Notes under the pieces: model-generated
The model's input: only the letters and a program-made list of their open reading frames with translations
Database searches by the model: none
What the model was told of the DNA's origin: nothing
Source: an uncultured Acidobacteriota bacterium
Lineage (GTDB): Bacteria; Acidobacteriota; Vicinamibacteria; Vicinamibacterales; UBA2999
Length of the DNA stretch: 64,000 bases
Assembly (NCBI GenBank): GCA_963846425.1
Contig: CAWJVW010000002.1
Location: 265,667-329,666, forward strand
Direction: 5' to 3'
Translations under genes and position numbers: made by a program
Part shown: piece by piece, positions 2,959 to 62,587 of the stretch
Layout: each line of letters starts with the position of its first letter
Position numbering within the stretch: position 1 is the stretch's first letter

Positions 2959-3891
2959 ATGGAAGGTGGACTGTTCGTCCTCGTGTTGCTCGCGATCATC
3001 GTCTTGATCGTGATCTGGAAGACCGCGGTCGTGGTGCCGCAGCAGAGCGCATATGTCATTGAAAGGCTAGGCCGCTATTCCGGCACCCTGGGCGCGGGAT
3101 TCCACATCCTCATCCCGTTCTTCGATGTCATCCGCTACCGGCATTCGCTCAAAGAAACCGCGGTGGACATTCCAGCACAGGTCTGCATCACGCGCGACAA
3201 CGTGCAGGTGCAGGTGGACGGCGTCTTGTATCTCAAAGTGCTGAACCCCGAGCGCGCCTCGTACGGCATTTCGGATTACCTCTTTGCGATCTCCCAGTTG
3301 GCACAGACGACGCTGCGCAGTGAGGTGGGCAAGATCGATTTGGACCGCACGTTCGAGGAGCGCACGAACATCAACACCTCGGTCGTGGCCGAGCTCGACA
3401 AGGCGTCCGAGCCGTGGGGGGTGAAAGTGCTGCGGTACGAGATCAAGAACATCACGCCTCCGCACGACATCCTCGCGGCGATGGAAAAGCAGATGCGCGC
3501 CGAGCGTGAGAAGCGCGCGGTCATTCTCACATCGGAAGGTCAACGCGACGCGGCCATCAACACGGCGGAAGGCACGAAGCAGGAAACGATCAAAGCATCC
3601 GAAGCGCGCCGGCAGCAGCAGATCAACGAAGCCGAGGGTCAGGCAGCCGCGATCCTGGCCGTGGCGACGGCAACCGCGGAAGGTCTACGCCGGGTTGCGG
3701 AGGCCACCACCGTGCCCGGGGGAACCGAGGCCGTCCAGTTGCGCGTCGCCGAGCAGTACATCGGCGAATTTGGTCGGGTGATCAACAACGCCGATACGAT
3801 CATCCTGCCCGCGAACGTCGCCGATGTGGCCTCGATGATCACGACTGCAATGCAGGTGATCGGTCAGAAGCCAGCAAGCCCGCGGCCGTAA
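2959..3891 (+). CDS. SPFH/band-7 (stomatin/paraslipin-like) protein
   Basis: N-terminal TM anchor, SPFH core (RDNVQVQVDGVLYLKV) and a coiled-coil tail (EKQMRAEREKRA). Confidence 0.88.
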   Translation: MEGGLFVLVLLAIIVLIVIWKTAVVVPQQSAYVIERLGRYSGTLGAGFHILIPFFDVIRYRHSLKETAVDIPAQVCITRDNVQVQVDGVLYLKVLNPERASYGISDYLFAISQLAQTTLRSEVGKIDLDRTFEERTNINTSVVAELDKASEPWGVKVLRYEIKNITPPHDILAAMEKQMRAEREKRAVILTSEGQRDAAINTAEGTKQETIKASEARRQQQINEAEGQAAAILAVATATAEGLRRVAEATTVPGGTEAVQLRVAEQYIGEFGRVINNADTIILPANVADVASMITTAMQVIGQKPASPRP

Positions 3892-7569: not shown

Positions 7570-7706
7570 GAACTAAGAACGAAAAACGAAGAACGCGAAC
7601 CGGGAACGAGGAACAGGGAACGGAACTGCCGCAAACGCGTTGGTTGGTTCGGCGATGTCCGTTCCGTTCATTCGTTCTTCGTTCTTAGTTCTTCGTTCTT
7701 AGTTCG
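7570..7706. repeat. inverted pair of heptamer arrays: (GAACGAN)x8 at 7570-7626 and its reverse complement (NTCGTTC)x7 at 7657-7706
   Basis: I counted period 7 directly: gaactaa gaacgaa aaacgaa gaacgcg aaccggg aacgagg aacaggg aacggaa. The right arm reads ttcattcgttcttcgttcttagttcttcgttcttagttcg. It fills the 151-nt ridA/truA divergent spacer. Confidence 0.9.
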
Positions 7707-19873: not shown

Positions 19874-20854
19874 ATGGACTTCAAGGATTATTACGCCACG
19901 CTTGGCGTCGCGAAGACGGCCTCCGACAAGGAAATCAAGCAGGCGTATCGCAAACTTGCGCGCAAGTATCACCCGGATGTGAATCCGGGAGACAAATCCG
20001 CTGAGGCTCGCTTCAAGGACATCAACGAAGCCAACGAGGTGCTCGGAGATCCCGAGAAGCGCAAGAAATACGACGAGCTCGGCGCGAACTGGCGCATGTA
20101 CGAACAAGCGCAAGCGCAAGGCGGCCGCCCAGGCAGTCCCTTCGGCGGTCAATGGACGTACGCGCCTGGCGGGGGCGGGTTCCGGCCGATGACCGAGGAC
20201 GACATGTCCGAGATGTTTGGCGGGGGCGACAGTCCGTTCTCGGATTTCTTCCGCACGTTTTTTGGCGGTGATGCAGAACCTTCGCGCGGGCGTCGGACAC
20301 GCACGCGCCCCCCACGCAATCGCAAGGGCCGTGACATCGAACACGAAATCGAGCTGGACCTCGCGAACGCTCTTCACGGATCGGTGCAGCGGCTGGGCAT
20401 CCAACATGACGGCGATGTGCGCAATGTCGAAGTGCGTATTCCAGCCGGTGTGATCGACGGTTCTCGCGTCCGGGTCGCTGGCGAAGGCGAACGCGGCACC
20501 GGTGCGCCAAGCGGCGACCTGTACCTGCGGATCAAGCTCCGACCTCATCCCCGCTTCGAGCGCAAAGGCCGGGATCTGTACACCAAAGTTCGCGTGCCAG
20601 TGACGACTGCCGTTCTTGGCGGTGAGGTCGAGGTACAAACCCTCTCCGGCAAATCACTGCGTCTCAAGGTTCCGCCGTTGACACAAAACGGCCAGGTCTT
20701 CCGACTACGCGGTCATGGGCTGCCGACGACCGGGAAGGACGGCACGGCCGGAGATTTGTATGCCACTGTAGACATTGCACTCCCACAGTCGTTGTCGGAT
20801 GAAGAGCGGATGCACTTCGAGGCGCTCGCGACGCTACAAAAGAGCGGGGAGTAA
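19874..20854 (+). CDS. cbpA: J-domain co-chaperone, CbpA/DnaJ class II type (no Zn-finger region)
   Basis: J domain with KYHPD (DYYATLGV...[11 protein letters not shown]), a G/F-rich linker and C-terminal DnaJ_C repeats. The Cys-rich domain is absent. ATG 19874 chosen. Confidence 0.85.
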
Positions 20855-20904
20855 GGCAAAAGGCCAAAGGCACAAGGCACAAGGCACAAGGCAAAAGGCG
20901 AAAG
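20853..20904. repeat. heptamer array (AAGGCAN)x7.5 filling the cbpA-clpB spacer
   Basis: aaggcaa aaggcca aaggcac aaggcac aaggcac aaggcaa aaggcga aag. It starts inside the cbpA stop codon and ends 3 nt before the clpB ATG. Confidence 0.92.
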
Positions 20905-26242: not shown

Positions 26243-26388
26243 GGTTCAGAGGTTCAGAGGTTCAGAGGTGCAGAGGTTCAGAGGTGCAGAGGTTCAGAGG
26301 TGCAGAGGTTCAGAGGTGCAGAGGTTCAGAGGTGCAGAGGTTCAGGGGTTCAGGGGTTCAGGGGTTCCACGGGTTCCACGGGTTCAGA
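26243..26388. repeat. octamer array, 18 units (GGTTCAGA, GGTGCAGA, GGTTCAGG, GGTTCCACG) with an alternating 16-nt super-repeat
   Basis: I counted unit by unit against the translated track ORF. The order is 3x ggttcaga, 4.5x (ggtgcaga ggttcaga), 3x ggttcagg, 2x ggttccacg, 1x ggttcaga. It lies in the PAP2/small-ORF divergent spacer. Confidence 0.95.
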
Positions 26389-39779: not shown

Positions 39780-41505
39780 AATCCCGTGCCGGCCAGCGAA
39801 GTTCTGCGGCACGGTACAATCGTCGTCTGTGCGTCGTTCGACCATCCCTGTAGTACTGCTCGCCGCGCTCTCCTTCCTGACCGGGCTCGGCCGTGGTGCT
39901 ATCGCCGACACCGACGAAGCGTTCTATGCGGAGTCGGCCCGTGAAATGGTCGAGTCTGGTGACTGGCTCACGCCTCAGTTCAATTACGAACCGAGGTTCC
40001 AAAAGCCGGCGCTCTACTACTGGCTGACCGCTGCGGTCTACGTCGTGACCGGACCGAGTGAGTTTGGTGCGCGTCTGTGGTCGGGTCTGGCCGGTGTGGG
40101 GCTTGTGATCATCACGGCGGCGGTTGGCCGACGATGGCTTGACGAATCAGCGGGTCTGGTCGCAGGCGCGATTACTGCCACAGGTTTTGGCTACTTCGCG
40201 CTTGCGCGCATGTCGCTGCCCGACCTGCCACTGGCGTTCTGCATCACGCTCGCGATTTGGGCCGCGTTTGTCGCGGCACTCGAACGTGAGCGCCATCCCC
40301 GGCGATGGCTGCTGCTGGCGGCGGCGGCCGCGGCGCTGGGCTTTCTGATGAAAGGCCCGCTCGCAATCGTCATCCCCGCACTGGTCGTCCTGCCGATCCT
40401 GTTGATCGAGCGGCGCTCCTTCAACATCAAACCTGTCGACGTTCTGGTGGCCGCGATTGTGTTTCTCTCGGTGGCGTCACCCTGGTACATCGCCATGTGG
40501 CTGCGGCACGGAAGCGATTATCTCCAGGGCTTCTTCGTCGGCGACAACTTCGAGCGGTTCGCGACGTCACGCTTCAACGATCCGCGCCCCTGGTGGTTCT
40601 ACCTGCCGGTGCTGGCTGGCGGACTGCTGCCATGGACGCCGGTTGCGCTCGTCTGGGTCAGACCCGTGTCGGATTTCCTAAAGCGGCGACGTGATGTGGG
40701 AACTGTCGAACTCAGGTTGCTGCTCTGGACGGTGCTTCCGCTCGTCTTCTTCACGTTGTCGGTTGGCAAACAGCCGCGCTACGTGCTGCCGGTGCTCCCG
40801 CCGATGGCGTTGCTGCTCGCGAGCGCCATCATTGCCCGGACCAGTGAGTGGCATAGCCGGGGCGGCATGCGCGTCAGGCCGCGCCCCAATCTCACCGTGG
40901 TAGCGGGCTGTGTGCTTGCAGGACTGTTCCTAATCGCACTGGCCGTAATGCTGTACCGCGCGAAGCCGCTCTTCTTGAACGTTCCTGAATTAGCCACCCT
41001 CATCGTCGTCATTCTCACTGCAGGGGCGGGCACTGCCGTAGTCGCGGTCAGCTTGACGAGTGCGTGGCGTGCGGCGCCCGCCGTGCTCGCGCTCGGAGCG
41101 GCGGTGACCTTTGCCGCGCTGCCGTACGGCACCTTACCAGCCGCACACGTTTCTGCCGTCTCCGAGATGGCGCGTCTGGTCCGCGATGCGCGAACCGGCG
41201 GCGAGGCGATTGGCACTTACAAAGTCTTTGTTCGCAATCTGGTGTTCTACACCCGCACCAAGCACACCGATCTGATTCACGACGAGCACATCCTGGATTG
41301 GCTGGGCAAGAATCCACGCGCGCTGATCGTGTTGCCGACCTCCGAGGCCGAACGCCTTGAACGCGACCACGGCCTCAAACTGGATCGCGTGGCAGAGCGG
41401 CTGTACTTTGACGACGGCGGAATTCGCCCGCGGATGCTGCTCTGGCCAGATCCGCAGCGCGATCTGCAACGGGTCGCATTGGTAAGAGCCTTACGGGTTC
41501 AGTAG
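39772..41505 (+). CDS. GT39/ArnT-like glycosyltransferase (dolichyl-phosphate-mannose-protein mannosyltransferase family)
   Basis: Polytopic protein with the DTDEAFYAESAREMVESGDWLTPQFNYEPRFQKPALYYWL loop motif. The true start may be GTG 39829, because 39772 lies inside a repeat array. Confidence 0.8.
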   Translation: MDRIPCRPAKFCGTVQSSSVRRSTIPVVLLAALSFLTGLGRGAIADTDEAFYAESAREMVESGDWLTPQFNYEPRFQKPALYYWLTAAVYVVTGPSEFGARLWSGLAGVGLVIITAAVGRRWLDESAGLVAGAITATGFGYFALARMSLPDLPLAFCITLAIWAAFVAALERERHPRRWLLLAAAAAALGFLMKGPLAIVIPALVVLPILLIERRSFNIKPVDVLVAAIVFLSVASPWYIAMWLRHGSDYLQGFFVGDNFERFATSRFNDPRPWWFYLPVLAGGLLPWTPVALVWVRPVSDFLKRRRDVGTVELRLLLWTVLPLVFFTLSVGKQPRYVLPVLPPMALLLASAIIARTSEWHSRGGMRVRPRPNLTVVAGCVLAGLFLIALAVMLYRAKPLFLNVPELATLIVVILTAGAGTAVVAVSLTSAWRAAPAVLALGAAVTFAALPYGTLPAAHVSAVSEMARLVRDARTGGEAIGTYKVFVRNLVFYTRTKHTDLIHDEHILDWLGKNPRALIVLPTSEAERLERDHGLKLDRVAERLYFDDGGIRPRMLLWPDPQRDLQRVALVRALRVQ

Positions 41506-41633
41506 TTCAGAGGTTCAGAGGTTCAGGGGTTCGGTTCGAATGCCAAAGTTCGAGGATCTCTGTCGAGCCTCCTGAACCTTCTGAACCTCCTGAACCTCTG
41601 AACCTCTGAACCCCTGAACCTCTGAACCTCAGG
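41495..41633. repeat. inverted pair of GGTTCAGR octamer arrays (4.5 units at 41495-41535, 7 reverse-complement units at 41568-41628), candidate bidirectional terminator
   Basis: gggttcag tagttcag aggttcag aggttcag gggttcgg ... cctgaacc ttctgaacc tcctgaacc tctgaacc tctgaacc cctgaacc tctgaacc. It spans exactly stop codon to stop codon of two convergent genes. Confidence 0.92.
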
Positions 41634-47526: not shown

Positions 47527-47551
47527 ACAGCGATGTTACTGCACCAAAATA

Positions 47552-47604
47552 GGTTCAGAGGTTCAGCAGTTCAGAGGTTCAGTAGTTCAGGGGTTCCGTC
47601 AGGG
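47552..47604. repeat. octamer array (GGTTCAGN)x6
   Basis: ggttcaga ggttcagc agttcaga ggttcagt agttcagg ggttccgt caggg, 25 nt upstream of the recG start on the opposite strand. Confidence 0.9.
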
Positions 47605-50457: not shown

Positions 50458-50531
50458 CCGGCTGACCTGTGGCTTTGAGGTTTCTTCGCCCAGGAAGCTC
50501 GACGTTAAAACGGTCTTTCGAAGGAGGAGCC

Positions 50532-51140
50532 GTGCAGCCGCTCACCAAACGTCAACGCGAGATTCTCGACTACCTCAACGAGTTCATCCAGCAGCACGGC
50601 TACGCACCCAGTCTGGAAGAGATTGGCCGCAAGTTCACGCTGTCGTCTCTTGCCACGGTTCACAAGCACCTCACCAACCTGCAAGAGAAGGGTTTCATTC
50701 GCCGGGCTTGGAATCGGAGCCGCTCGGTGGAACTGCTGCCTAGCCGTGCCGCCGGACGTGCGGTCGAAGTCCCACTGCTTGGCTACGTCGCAGCCGGCAT
50801 GCCGATCGAAGCCGTCGCAGGTACGGAGAGCATCGCGATTCCTGAATCGCTTCTGAGCGGCAAGCGCGATACCTATGTGCTCCGCGTTCGGGGCGATTCG
50901 ATGATTGACGAGCAAATCCGGGATGGTGACTGGGTCGTGGTGGAAGACCGGAAGTCGGCCGACAACGGCGAGATGGTGATTGCGCTGGTTGGCGGGCAGG
51001 ACGCCACGCTCAAAAAGTTTTACAAGGAGAATGGCCGCATTCGATTGCAACCCGCCAATCCGGCGATGCAGCCAATCTTCGCGGACCTGGACAACGTGCA
51101 GATACAAGGAGTCGTCGTCGGAGTGATGCGCAAGTACTGA
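50532..51140 (+). CDS. lexA: LexA repressor
   Basis: N-terminal winged helix LTKRQREILDYLNEFIQQHGYAPSLEEIG and S24 peptidase motifs GDSM and TLKKF. In-frame GTG 50532 has AGGAGG 5 nt upstream and gives a typical ~200-aa LexA. Confidence 0.93.
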   Translation: MQPLTKRQREILDYLNEFIQQHGYAPSLEEIGRKFTLSSLATVHKHLTNLQEKGFIRRAWNRSRSVELLPSRAAGRAVEVPLLGYVAAGMPIEAVAGTESIAIPESLLSGKRDTYVLRVRGDSMIDEQIRDGDWVVVEDRKSADNGEMVIALVGGQDATLKKFYKENGRIRLQPANPAMQPIFADLDNVQIQGVVVGVMRKY

Positions 51141-51154
51141 CGTACACTTGCGTC

Positions 51155-51481
51155 ATGTCAGAGCGCAAGCAAATCAACTTCACTATCGTGCCCGATGACA
51201 ATGGGTCGGGCCCGGAACGGGTGTACGCCAACTTCTGCGGTGTCGCCCACACGCCGTTCGACTTTACGCTGACCTTCTGCGAGGTCATGCCGCTCTCCGA
51301 AAAGGAGATTCGCGAGGCCGAAGCAGACCACACGGTCCGCGCGCCCGTGAAAGCACGCATCGTGATGCCCGTCCAGTTCGTGCCCACCCTCGTGGCGGCG
51401 TTGCAGGAAAACCTGCGGATTTTTTCGGAATCCCACGCACCGCAGCAAGCGCCGGCCCCCGGCAAAGGCCCCGTTCACTAG
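51155..51481 (+). CDS. DUF3467-family protein
   Basis: 108 aa with YANFCGVAHTPFDFTLTF, characteristic of DUF3467. 14 nt downstream of lexA. Confidence 0.7.
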   Translation: MSERKQINFTIVPDDNGSGPERVYANFCGVAHTPFDFTLTFCEVMPLSEKEIREAEADHTVRAPVKARIVMPVQFVPTLVAALQENLRIFSESHAPQQAPAPGKGPVH

Positions 51482-51559
51482 CGAAGCTCCGCCCCGAACC
51501 GCCGACCCAAGGCTCCGCTTCGCTCATCCAGTGTTGTTTTGCCCCGCTCCGCGGGGCGA

Positions 51560-51623
51560 GACATCTTCTAAGGCCCGGCGAAAACTTGCTTTAATTGTCA
51601 CTACTATGACCTTAGAAGATGTC
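51560..51623 (+). promoter_or_regulatory. 14-bp perfect inverted repeat GACATCTTCTAAGG (51560-51573) / CCTTAGAAGATGTC (51610-51623) enclosing the nth start codon
   Basis: The right arm contains ATG 51619-51621. The 36-nt spacer is AT-richer than its surroundings. Confidence 0.6.
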
Positions 51624-52380
51624 TAAGGGAATCGTGAAGTCGCGTCAGGTCGCGCGCCGCGTTTTCGCCGCGCTCGAGCGGCATTATCCAGACGCCGACA
51701 CCGAGCTGAATTACCGCACGCCGTTCGAGTTGCTGGTAGCCACGATCTTGTCGGCCCAGTCCACGGATCAGCGCGTGAATCTCGTGACACCTGATTTGTT
51801 CGCGCGTTACCCCGATGCCGATCGAATGGCGTGTGCCAATCCCGAAGATCTGGAGCCGATCATCATGTCCACCGGCTTCTTTCGTCAGAAGTCGCGCTCC
51901 CTCGTGGGGATGGCAGCGGCTCTCGTCGAGCATCACGCGGGACAGGTGCCCGCGGACATGGACGCGCTCGTCAAGCTGCCTGGAGTTGGACGAAAAACAG
52001 CCAACGTCGTCCTGGGTCATGCGCTCGGTGTTCCCGGCTTTCCGGTCGATCGGCACGTCTTGCGCGTGACCAATCGTCTCGGGCTGGTCCACAGTGAAGA
52101 CCCCGAGAAAGTCGAATCGGCGCTATGCGCGTACTTGTCGCCAGAGCGTTGGACGAAAGCCTCCGACACGCTGATCCTTCACGGACGCCGCATTTGTCGT
52201 CCGACCCCGCTTTGCGAGCGATGTAACGCGCGGAAGGATTGTGACTTCTATCTGCGCGGAGGAATGGTGGTCCGGGCAGGAACTGGAAAGGCACAAGGTA
52301 CAAGGCAGAAGGCAGGCACAAGGCAGAAGGCACAAACCACGAGGCAGAAGGCACCAGGCAAGAGGCCCAGCAAGCGATGA
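51619..52380 (+). CDS. nth: endonuclease III (Nth) with a repeat-encoded basic C-terminal tail
   Basis: HhH motif LPGVGRKTANVVL and [4Fe-4S] motif CRPTPLCERCNARKDC. The last ~35 codons ([33 protein letters not shown]) are the translated AAGGCAN array. Confidence 0.9.
   Translation: MSKGIVKSRQVARRVFAALERHYPDADTELNYRTPFELLVATILSAQSTDQRVNLVTPDLFARYPDADRMACANPEDLEPIIMSTGFFRQKSRSLVGMAAALVEHHAGQVPADMDALVKLPGVGRKTANVVLGHALGVPGFPVDRHVLRVTNRLGLVHSEDPEKVESALCAYLSPERWTKASDTLILHGRRICRPTPLCERCNARKDCDFYLRGGMVVRAGTGKAQGTRQKAGTRQKAQTTRQKAPGKRPSKR
52288..52368. repeat. heptamer array (AAGGCAN)x11, lying inside the 3' end of the nth ORF
   Basis: aaggcac aaggtac aaggcag aaggcag gcac aaggcag aaggcac aaaccac gaggcag aaggcac caggcaa gaggccc. 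Confidence 0.9.
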
Positions 52381-52788
52381 CGCGAGAGCGGTTCAGGGAG
52401 TTGGTCCAGCAAGCCATCGACACCATTCCGCGACGCTTTGCCCGCGAGATTCGCAATGTCGCAATCGTGATCGAAGATCGGCCGTCGCCTGAACTCCTCG
52501 CCGACATGGAGATGGGACCCGACGAAATCCTGCTCGGGCTTTATCAAGGTGTGCCTCTGACAGAGAGGCCTTGGGGGCACGGCAACGCAGCTGCCCGACC
52601 GCATCACTTTGTTTCAGCGCGAGATTGAAGAGGATTGCGAGGACGACGACGAGGAAATTGTCGCGGCCGTCGGGGAAACGTTGATCCACGAGCTGGGCCA
52701 CTACTTTGGCTTGAGCGAAGAAGAGATCATGGACATCGAAGAGCGATACTGGCGCGGCGACGCATTCGAAGGCGAGCCGTCCTCGTGA
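52377..52788 (+). pseudogene. zincin-like (DUF1025-type) metallopeptidase, reading frame broken by +1 shift between 52561 and 52626
   Basis: The N-part (MTRERFRELVQQAIDTIPRRFAREIRNVAIVIEDRPS...GLYQGVPLTER) is in frame 0. The C-part (QLPDRITLFQREIE...TLIHELGHYFGLSEEEIMDIEERYW) is in frame +1 ending at TGA 52786-52788. A G5 run at 52573-52577 is the likely indel site. Confidence 0.8.
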
Positions 52789-53588
52789 AGCCGCGGAAGC
52801 GCTTCGGCCAGCACTTTCTCGAACCCATGTGGGTCGCCAAGCTTGTCGCCGCAATCGCCCCTTCGCCCACTGACCGCTTTCTCGAGATTGGCCCAGGCCA
52901 TGGAGCAATTACCGGTCCTCTGGCTGAGAGGGTCGCCAAACTGCTCGCGGTGGAAGTCGATCGCGATCTGGCAACGGCCCTCCAACGACGCGCCCTTCCC
53001 AATGTGACAGTCATTGAGGCCGATGTGCTCGACGCGGACCTCGGCGAACTCGTGAGACGCGAATTGGACGCGACATCTGAGAGTACAGTCCGTGTCGCGG
53101 GCAATCTCCCCTACAACATCTCATCGCCGATTCTCTTCCGCCTGCTCGATGCCGCTACCACCGGCCTCCTGCGGGATGCGACGCTCATGCTGCAGAAAGA
53201 GGTTGCGGACCGACTCCTGGCGCGGCCCTCGACGCGCGAGTACGGCGTGCTGACGCTGATGACGGCGTTGGGCGCAGACGTGAAACGACTGCTCGAATTA
53301 CCGCCCGGCGCGTTCCGCCCGCCGCCCAAGGTTCGCTCCGCTGTCGTTGGGCTCTCGTTCCGGCCAGCGCCCGCGGATGTTCACCACCCCCAACTCGTCA
53401 TTGAGATCGTGAGGAGCATCTTTACCCAGCGGCGGAAGATGTTGTCGAATGCGTTGGCGCCGCTTGCGACTCGTCGGGGGACTACGGCTCAGGAGGCGCT
53501 GGACCGGGCTGGGCTGGATTCCCGCCGACGCCCGGAAACGCTCGAGCTATCCGAGGTCGCGCGTCTGGCTGATGTGTTTGCACGCTAA
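52785..53588 (+). CDS. rsmA: 16S rRNA (adenine1518/1519-N6)-dimethyltransferase RsmA/KsgA
   Basis: VKPRKRFGQHFL start motif, SAM motif EIGPGHGAIT. GTG 52785 overlaps the upstream stop (GTGA). The longer track N-terminus is an out-of-frame read of the peptidase gene. Confidence 0.9.
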   Translation: MKPRKRFGQHFLEPMWVAKLVAAIAPSPTDRFLEIGPGHGAITGPLAERVAKLLAVEVDRDLATALQRRALPNVTVIEADVLDADLGELVRRELDATSESTVRVAGNLPYNISSPILFRLLDAATTGLLRDATLMLQKEVADRLLARPSTREYGVLTLMTALGADVKRLLELPPGAFRPPPKVRSAVVGLSFRPAPADVHHPQLVIEIVRSIFTQRRKMLSNALAPLATRRGTTAQEALDRAGLDSRRRPETLELSEVARLADVFAR

Positions 53589-62483: not shown

Positions 62484-62587
62484 GAAGGCAAAGGCAGAAG
62501 ACGAAAGGCAAAATTCAACGCTCGCGACAGGGCCGACGCTTTAGGTTTTGCCTTCTGCCTTCTGCCTTCTGCCTTGTACCCTATGCC
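62484..62587. repeat. inverted pair of AAGGCAN heptamer arrays (62484-62513 and reverse complement 62546-62587)
   Basis: gaaggca aaggcag aagacga aaggcaa aa ... ttttgcc ttctgcc ttctgcc ttctgcc ttgtacc ctatgcc, between the JAMM stop and the next gene's RBS. Confidence 0.9.

Follow-up and report, generated by a model that had tools for sequence, protein, structure and literature searches.

The nth locus

The window analyzed here is a whole stretch of 64,000 nucleotides from contig CAWJVW010000002.1 of an uncultured Acidobacteriota bacterium (order Vicinamibacterales), and it carries an nth gene, encoding endonuclease III (Nth), that continues past its iron-sulfur (Fe-S) cluster motif into a basic C-terminal tail. 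Part of this tail is encoded by a degenerate tandem array of the heptamer AAGGCAN, and the gene ends in a stop/start overlap with its downstream neighbor. The features of the locus, numbered from the first letter of the window, are the following:

51619..52380, plus strand: nth (endonuclease III) coding sequence, tail included, 253 amino acids (aa); open reading frame (ORF) list, Pfam and PDB matches
52195..52242, plus strand: [4Fe-4S] ligand motif CRPTPLCERCNARKDC (C193-C208), C-x5-C-x2-C-x5-C; sequence and alignment
52243..52281, plus strand: first part of the tail, conserved in the clade: DFYLRGGMVVRAG, residues 209-221; pattern DF[YF]xxGGxVV[KR]A in most of 122 orthologues
52288..52368, plus strand: degenerate AAGGCAN heptamer array, about 11 units plus one 4-nucleotide (nt) partial unit, encoding K224-P250; Tandem Repeats Finder and exact cores
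52369..52380, plus strand: end of the tail, S-K-R-stop, with the ATGA overlap at 52377-52380; identical in four strain alleles and common to the array-less relative L205
52377..52788, plus strand: Zincin_1 (PF06262) gene, overlapping nth; Pfam on both halves, aligned with the intact genes of the close relatives L082 and L083

Sequence comparison assigns the 253-aa product of this ORF to endonuclease III of the HhH-GPD superfamily: Pfam places the HhH-GPD domain (PF00730) at residues 40-169 (E 1e-21; 77.6 bits, cutoff 26.2) and also matches the HHH motif (PF00633), and solved EndoIII structures cover residues 9-210 (1P59/1ORN, residues 9-204, E 3e-42; E. coli 2ABK, residues 15-210, E 2.5e-35). 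Both the GVGRKTA motif and the four cluster cysteines (C193, C199, C202 and C208) are invariant in an alignment of 40 Nth orthologues. The initial annotation, made from the letters of the sequence, had placed a cysteine cluster before the tail but gave its spacing as C-x6-C-x2-C-x5-C; the first gap is x5, and the resulting x5-x2-x5 spacing is one residue shorter than that of E. coli, with x6 found in some relatives.

Forty-five residues follow the last cluster cysteine, C208, before the ORF ends in AAG CGA TGA, and the ATG of the next ORF, at 52377, creates the ATGA overlap. E. coli Nth, of 211 aa, aligns to residues 15-210, leaving the protein of the window longer by about 37 codons; the original estimate was roughly 35 additional codons.

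The AAGGCAN array at the 3′ end of nth

Tandem Repeats Finder reports the array at 52288-52360 with period 7, 10.9 copies and 69% matches, and also detects a period of 21 (score 90) and an 18-nt imperfect duplication within it (52296-52332, 94%). Read in register, the array comprises six units with an exact AAGGCA core, five that deviate at one or two positions, and a truncated one of 4 nt. The count of 11 AAGGCAN units given initially therefore holds if as many as two mismatches per unit are allowed, but the truncated unit breaks the register. The six exact cores are packed into 66 nt, and on both strands of the window 41 such cores occur where shuffled sequences lead one to expect 23 ± 5, so that the cluster in nth is far beyond chance. 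That the array is read through as a basic C-terminal tail of Nth, up to the overlap with the next gene, is borne out by the ORF, by Tandem Repeats Finder and by the cores. The uniform 7-aa peptide period (three times 7 nt) first described is not found; because of the 18-nt duplication, the encoded periods are 6, 6, 7 and 7 residues.

Inspection of the other frames of the array, as had been suggested, revealed no stop in any of the six. AAGGCAN is stop-free in six frames whenever N is not T, the sole possible stop being a TAA that requires N = T. Moreover, 7 is coprime with 3, and each forward frame therefore yields the same heptapeptide, K-A-x-G-x-R-x, made up of K, A, G, R, Q and T. Codon usage in the tail is dictated by the repeat: AGG occurs four times in the tail versus none in the core of nth, GCA five times versus once, and third-position GC content is 0.59 in the tail and 0.71 in the core. 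A scan of the other plausible genes of the window found no comparably basic C-terminus in any other real gene, so the Nth tail is not a proteome-wide artefact.

Ancestry of the tail

A tail beyond the last cluster cysteine is present in all 122 of the closest Nth orthologues (66-94% identity; Vicinamibacterales and other Acidobacteriota), with a length of 13-77 aa and a median of 37 aa. These tails contain 30% K+R and 4% D+E, carry a median net charge of +10, and nearly all end in a K/R cluster. Most are free of repeats; outside the cluster formed by this species, an evident internal peptide repeat occurs only in P0002, P0077, P0086 and P0107. In the variable part of the tail, K, R and D+E account for 15.9%, 21.8% and 1.7% of residues, where a neutral expectation calculated from base composition gives 1.9%, 13.1% and 6.2%, respectively. 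What is kept across the set is composition (high K/R, low D/E, few hydrophobics) without conservation of sequence. The basic-tail pattern recurs across 45 genome loci; Nth proteins of outgroups (Gemmatimonadota, Planctomycetota, Spirochaetota and others) end 4-22 residues past the cluster, with no basic bias.

The position of the stop codon is shared as well. In 38 of 46 Acidobacteriota loci nth and a Zincin_1 gene overlap by the 4 nt NTGA, which contain the stop, and six further loci, in which a spacer of 7-94 nt separates the two genes, encode basic tails all the same. A relative that lacks the array (L205, protein P0003, 83% identical) terminates in AGCAAGCGATGACGCGAGAGCG and has its last codons and its junction in common with the window; just upstream of this shared terminus it carries a single AAGGCGA unit (K-A codons), which is a plausible seed for slippage. 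The universal tails of the orthologues, the NTGA overlap and the junction of L205 together indicate that tail and stop are ancestral. The proposal that the array had captured the stop codon, and so created the tail, is accordingly not supported, since orthologues without repeats carry basic tails of similar length.

Aligned with these sequences, the array appears as an insertion or expansion inside the hypervariable middle of the tail, between a DFYxxGGxVV(K/R)AG stem and the K/R terminus, and as a recent, species-level expansion. The other Vicinamibacterales loci fetched (about 300 kb) contain no run of three or more AAGGCNN units.

Repeats of other kinds are found at the same site. A sister lineage (L204, positions 1850-1995; protein P0002, 80% identical) has a different translated insert at the same position in the tail, a 21-nt repeat (2.8 copies) with the palindromes GACCGGGCTAAAGCCCGGTC and CCCGGGCTTTAGCCCGGG on either side, and the tails of other orthologues contain translated repeats of 9 or 12 nt. 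These inserts suggest that the tail-coding region may be a permissive landing site for repetitive DNA.

Strain alleles and reading frame

Four independently assembled alleles were compared: that of the window and those of L001 (from ENA), L083 (JGI) and L082 (Logan), the latter three belonging to the same species-level cluster, at 94-96% protein identity. All three read through the array in the same frame and reach the same SKR-stop/ATGA junction. In the DNA alignment, L083 has the most regular array of the four, L082 is missing exactly three units (21 nt, seven residues), and the window carries 18 extra nt (the imperfect duplication), in both cases between identical flanks. The resulting Nth proteins are 240, 247, 247 and 253 aa long. 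All length changes are multiples of 3 nt, with frame and junction kept in 4/4 alleles, which is consistent with selection for the K/R terminus and for the coupled start of the next gene. The suggestion that the array evolved in place, constrained to stay open, agrees with these alleles.

A sequencing error that hides a stop codon is ruled out: all frames are free of stops across the array, and the same frame is read in the three other assemblies. No frame-switching allele (a change by other than a multiple of 3 nt) was seen among the four, a small sample that makes for a weak test, and an exact-match scan of metagenomes for the nth/zincin junction, in search of more strain alleles, returned no match.

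AAGGCAN arrays elsewhere

Two further loci of the window contain AAGGCAN arrays:

20853..20904, plus strand: intergenic AAGGCAN array, 7.4 copies, occupying all of the interval from a cbpA/dnaJ-like gene to clpB
62485..62575 (62485-62510 on the plus strand, 62549-62575 on the minus strand): inverted AAGGCAN pair, in an intergenic spacer flanked by two minus-strand genes

The TAA stop of the cbpA/dnaJ-like gene is formed by a T and the first unit of the 20853-20904 array, and hypothetical read-through would extend the protein by a basic tail of 18 aa, ending in an ATGA overlap with clpB. The inverted pair, flanked by a JAB/MPN-like gene and a minus-strand gene downstream, is predicted to form an RNA hairpin (-55 kcal/mol, z -2.9). 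The view that the repeat in nth is of an intergenic type is upheld by these two arrays to the extent that AAGGCAN is indeed intergenic elsewhere in this genome; that it created the tail is not supported.

Arrays of at least four AAGGCAN units are present on at least 120 metagenome contigs, with a GC content of 0.33-0.70 among the matches listed. Inverted pairs are frequent among these listed arrays (for example, L097, L110, L157, L191 and L202), and N = T, and hence a stop, occurs in 10 of the 139 arrays among the matches listed. A peptide search with (KAxGxRx)n returned 314 matches from cyanobacteria, Burkholderia, Acidobacteriota and others, nearly all of them domain-less ‘hypothetical proteins’ of 56-146 aa that are ORF calls over intergenic arrays. 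As nearly all of these matches are spurious, it is unusual for such an array to be translated as part of a bona fide conserved enzyme, and caution is advisable in annotation wherever ORFs are called over AAGGCAN arrays, most of which elsewhere are spurious ‘hypothetical proteins’.

The 120 metagenome loci were also examined for arrays that serve as C-terminal tails, and of the 20 candidates with a long upstream ORF, read from stop to stop, nearly all were GC-rich shadow ORFs. L144 and, less surely, L180 are the only ones that look genuine: in L144 (2853-2880) the C-terminus of an aspartate-semialdehyde dehydrogenase-like (Asd-like) protein (…NAVQIAELLV) seems to enter a four-unit AAGGCAN array that adds RRKAEGKRQKAEVGAG, and this locus may be a second example of read-through.

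Tandem arrangement beyond chance, occurrence at several loci and in several genomes, and copy-number variation between strains make AAGGCAN a dispersed family of heptameric simple sequence repeats (SSRs). No description of the unit was found, in literature that was not searched for it by sequence.

The overlapping Zincin_1 gene

Immediately downstream, an extra A at 52589 splits the Zincin_1 gene of the window into two ORFs; the gene is intact, at 136 aa, in three close relatives. The extra A is either an assembly indel or a mark of recent pseudogenization, and other indel errors may be present in the window. No Zincin_1 signature was found in the flanks (about 3 kb) of nth at 33 other loci (L047-L081 without L062 and L079), which belong nearly all to other phyla; the two loci left out are from Acidobacteriota. 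The basic tail and the small metalloprotease are thus found together in a single clade. That Nth and Zincin_1 are functionally linked, for instance through the removal of DNA-trapped Nth, is pure speculation.

The ATG of the zincin is in frame with frame +2 of the array, so that Nth and the zincin would become one ORF if the array grew by 7 nt. A search was made with an artificial Nth-zincin fusion, and about 10 fused ORFs exist (L038, from position 3001; P0123-P0131 and P0133), in several metagenome-assembled genomes with long contigs. Programmed fusion was considered and rejected, as most of these ORFs are frameshifted inside the Nth core (P0123, P0126, P0128, P0130) and are probably assembly errors or pseudogenes. 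In P0124, P0125 and P0131 the Fe-S motif is intact, and genuine fusions are possible there.

Structure prediction and proposed explanation

An AlphaFold2 model, computed with a 40-sequence alignment, has moderate-to-high confidence in the Nth core (whole-model mean predicted local distance difference test score (pLDDT) 74.4, predicted template modeling score 0.62). For residues 208-243 pLDDT is below 50, the last residues have block means of about 49, and no secondary structure is modeled along the whole length of the tail. These predictions are consistent with an intrinsically disordered tail. In complexes of EndoIII with DNA, the Fe-S cluster loop touches the DNA backbone, and a polycationic chain that leaves the protein at C208 would therefore be placed next to DNA. 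By analogy, the tail is likely to function in non-specific electrostatic DNA binding.

In the explanation that we favor, with a probability of roughly 70%, the tail is a clade-typical, disordered, polycationic extension of Nth with an ancestral, overlapped stop codon, and the AAGGCAN repeat occupies its middle in this species. The extension itself is ancestral and common to Vicinamibacterales and related Acidobacteriota, its stop codon locked into the 4-nt overlap with the downstream Zincin_1 gene. The hypervariable middle is taken up by AAGGCAN, a unit also found in intergenic arrays of this genome, which probably expanded through replication slippage from pre-existing Lys-Ala codons (AAG GCN); a heptapeptide rich in K, A, G, R, Q and T, whatever the frame, fits the compositional requirement of the tail. 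Next to the Fe-S loop, the tail would add non-specific affinity for DNA, perhaps tuning the search for lesions or the release of product and turnover. The analysis establishes the layout of the locus, the age of tail and stop, the in-frame length differences and a disorder-like structure prediction; the placement beside the Fe-S loop and the role in DNA binding are inferred.

Several points weigh against this explanation. DNA binding by the tail is purely inferential, and in Mycobacterium smegmatis a Ku protein without its lysine-rich tail bound DNA more strongly (PMC3553676), so the direction of any effect of the tail is not predictable. An origin by seeding and slippage is indistinguishable from gene conversion or insertion from another array. 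With only four alleles, retention of frame in all of them is a weak test, and frameshifted alleles are prone to be missed or miscalled by gene finders. Finally, the assembly of the window has one indel or more (an A too many at 52589), and the 18-nt duplication unique to it could be an assembly artefact.

Alternative explanations

It is rather unlikely that the array acts at the level of nucleic acid, as an unstructured, purine-rich leader or standby site for the coupled translation of Zincin_1 or as the binding site of a factor, with the peptide a tolerated by-product. The array does directly precede the zincin ATG, its RNA shows less structure than that of shuffled sequences (z +1.6, with a nearly unpaired centroid), the array between cbpA and clpB likewise abuts a start codon, and start-proximal heptamers of Beggiatoaceae have been proposed as post-transcriptional regulatory sites (PMC4679880). 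Such a role sits poorly with the pair at 62485-62575, which has arrays in both orientations and a hairpin instead of an open leader, with an array length that varies between strains, and with the lack of any known cognate factor. Array-less relatives, furthermore, retain both overlap and coupling, and a role for the RNA is therefore not needed to explain the data.

Quite improbable, in our estimation, is a broader proposal in which AAGGCAN is a frame-neutral, stop-free, hypermutable module that, at the 3′ end of a gene, can yield a K/R-rich peptide in whatever frame it is read, serves nth as a length cassette for a DNA-binding tail, toggles an Nth-Zincin_1 fusion by 7-nt slippage, and may belong to a paired Nth/zincin system. 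If this were true, the zincin might clear covalent, DNA-trapped Schiff-base adducts of Nth by proteolysis, in the manner of SprT/Wss1-type proteases.

Could tail and array simply be a tolerated, drifting, low-complexity appendix without function? The middle of the tail has no conserved sequence, tail length is spread over 5-77 aa, and lineages differ in their translated repeats (21 nt with palindromes in L204, 9 nt and 12 nt in others), all of which would fit drift; drift would not be expected to hold K 8-fold above and D+E 3.6-fold below the neutral expectation, with hydrophobics nearly absent, nor to do so uniformly in more than 120 orthologues, loci without a gene overlap included, nor to conserve a K/R-rich terminus. 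We consider this explanation very unlikely.

Still harder to credit is a contingency locus in which 7-nt slippage would switch between tailed Nth plus zincin, an Nth-zincin fusion (+7) and an Nth with 37 further residues that run over the zincin start (-7). All four alleles are in frame, a degenerate array (69% matches) lowers the rate of slippage, and phase variation would hardly be expected of a housekeeping repair gene, even though all frames are open, with frame +2 in frame with the zincin ATG, and heptameric SSRs slip readily (PMC4692102, PMC4679880, citing Mrazek 2007). The fused nth-zincin ORFs known from databases (L038; P0123-P0131) would speak for switching, but most of them carry frameshifted garbage in the Nth core, as expected from long-contig assembly errors.

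Stop-codon capture, by which a short ancestral nth would have lost its stop and absorbed an intergenic AAGGCAN array lying downstream, with the tail arising de novo, can be set aside as barely credible: intergenic arrays of the unit do occur in this genome, the one at 20853-20904 begins at an upstream TAA and its read-through would be an exact template, and the Asd-like gene of L144 seems to run into an array, but a basic tail is already present in every orthologue, the clade as a whole keeps the nth stop within the NTGA overlap, the last codons have their homologues in the array-less L205, and there is no spacer between nth and the zincin gene to house an array.

Relation to known systems

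The favored explanation, an ancestral basic tail with a heptamer array in its middle, combines two known phenomena, basic low-complexity tails and heptameric SSRs, and is more ordinary than what was first proposed. Its significance is moderate for the same reason, both ingredients having been known.

Among bacterial proteins, the closest parallel for the tail is provided by mycobacterial Ku and Hlp (HupB), whose lysine-rich PAKKA tails contact DNA and modulate activity (PMC3553676). Like these, Nth is a bacterial DNA-repair or DNA-binding protein with a basic, repetitive, low-complexity C-terminal tail that some lineages have and others lack. Unlike these, it belongs to another protein family, and its repeat is a 7-nt DNA unit rather than a codon-based one (PAKKA); the Nth tail is R/K/A/S/T-rich and non-repetitive in most orthologues.

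In eukaryotes, a lysine-rich N-terminal domain mediates ROS1's non-specific binding to DNA (PMC3045615), and the tails of other glycosylases (the N-terminal tails of hNTH1 and UNG2, the C-terminal tail of NEIL1) have been shown or proposed to act in DNA binding, processivity and turnover (PMC9266487). The window’s Nth resembles these enzymes in having a non-catalytic basic or disordered extension on a glycosylase core; the eukaryotic tails differ in being mostly N-terminal and in also bearing sites for localization, modification and partner binding. ROS1 and hNTH1 share the Nth fold, and ROS1 is a member of the HhH-GPD family. Bacterial DNA glycosylases are usually seen as bare catalytic cores, and long disordered tails as a eukaryotic elaboration; a polycationic Nth tail across a whole clade of soil bacteria departs from that view. 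Long tails have indeed been treated as mainly eukaryotic, with bacterial Ung and Mug having little beyond the catalytic domain (PMC9266487), and the literature searched yielded no report of a tail shared by the bacterial Nth proteins of a whole clade.

Intergenic heptameric SSRs have been described as GGGAATC in Xanthomonas, GGGGAYT in Nostoc, the STRR of cyanobacteria, TAACTGA in Beggiatoaceae, and elements of Geobacter (PMC4692102, PMC4679880, PMC2700814). The arrays described here resemble them in being dispersed, mostly intergenic, often adjacent to starts or stops, sometimes paired in inverted orientation, and variable in length between strains; they differ in their unit, AAGGCAN, and in having one array that forms a translated, in-frame part of the gene for a conserved enzyme. 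Units of the Beggiatoaceae TAACTGA type contain stops and are untranslatable, whereas AAGGCAN can be translated. Coding-region SSRs are the basis of phase-variable contingency loci in Haemophilus, Neisseria and Helicobacter, with which the nth array has in common a repeat unit inside an ORF that is not a multiple of three. It differs from them in lying at the extreme 3′ end, where a frameshift alters the tail and keeps the enzyme, in being degenerate, and in belonging to a housekeeping repair gene rather than a surface or restriction-modification gene.

This one species thus illustrates how a tail can evolve, a slippage-prone 7-nt repeat being tolerated because every frame encodes suitable residues, and its natural alleles of 240, 247 and 253 aa offer a simple system for the effects of tail length and charge on the search for lesions.

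Gene neighborhood and other repeats

The gene order over 50469-53588 is lexA, DUF3467, nth, Zincin_1 and rsmA/ksgA, followed by RNase J. L082 shares DUF3467-nth-Zincin_1-RrnaAD and L204 shares lexA-DUF3467-nth-Zincin_1, placing nth in this lineage directly downstream of the SOS repressor gene. At the start of nth there is a perfect 15-nt inverted repeat (51559-51573 / 51610-51624), whose 3′ arm contains the nth start codon. It was considered as a candidate for a conserved RNA structure and rejected, given that the changes in L082 and L083 are uncompensated and lend no covariation support. Rfam at gathering thresholds detected one tRNA only in the window and no RNA family near nth, and a scan for promoters and terminators was uninformative.

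Further short tandem arrays of the window (26243-26385, 41496-41532, 41572-41630, 47551-47596; 7665-7705) include GGTTCAGA octamer arrays of up to 15.6 copies, one pair of which is inverted, and an array of the heptamer CGTTCTT. This genome appears to be rich in SSRs of 7-8 nt.

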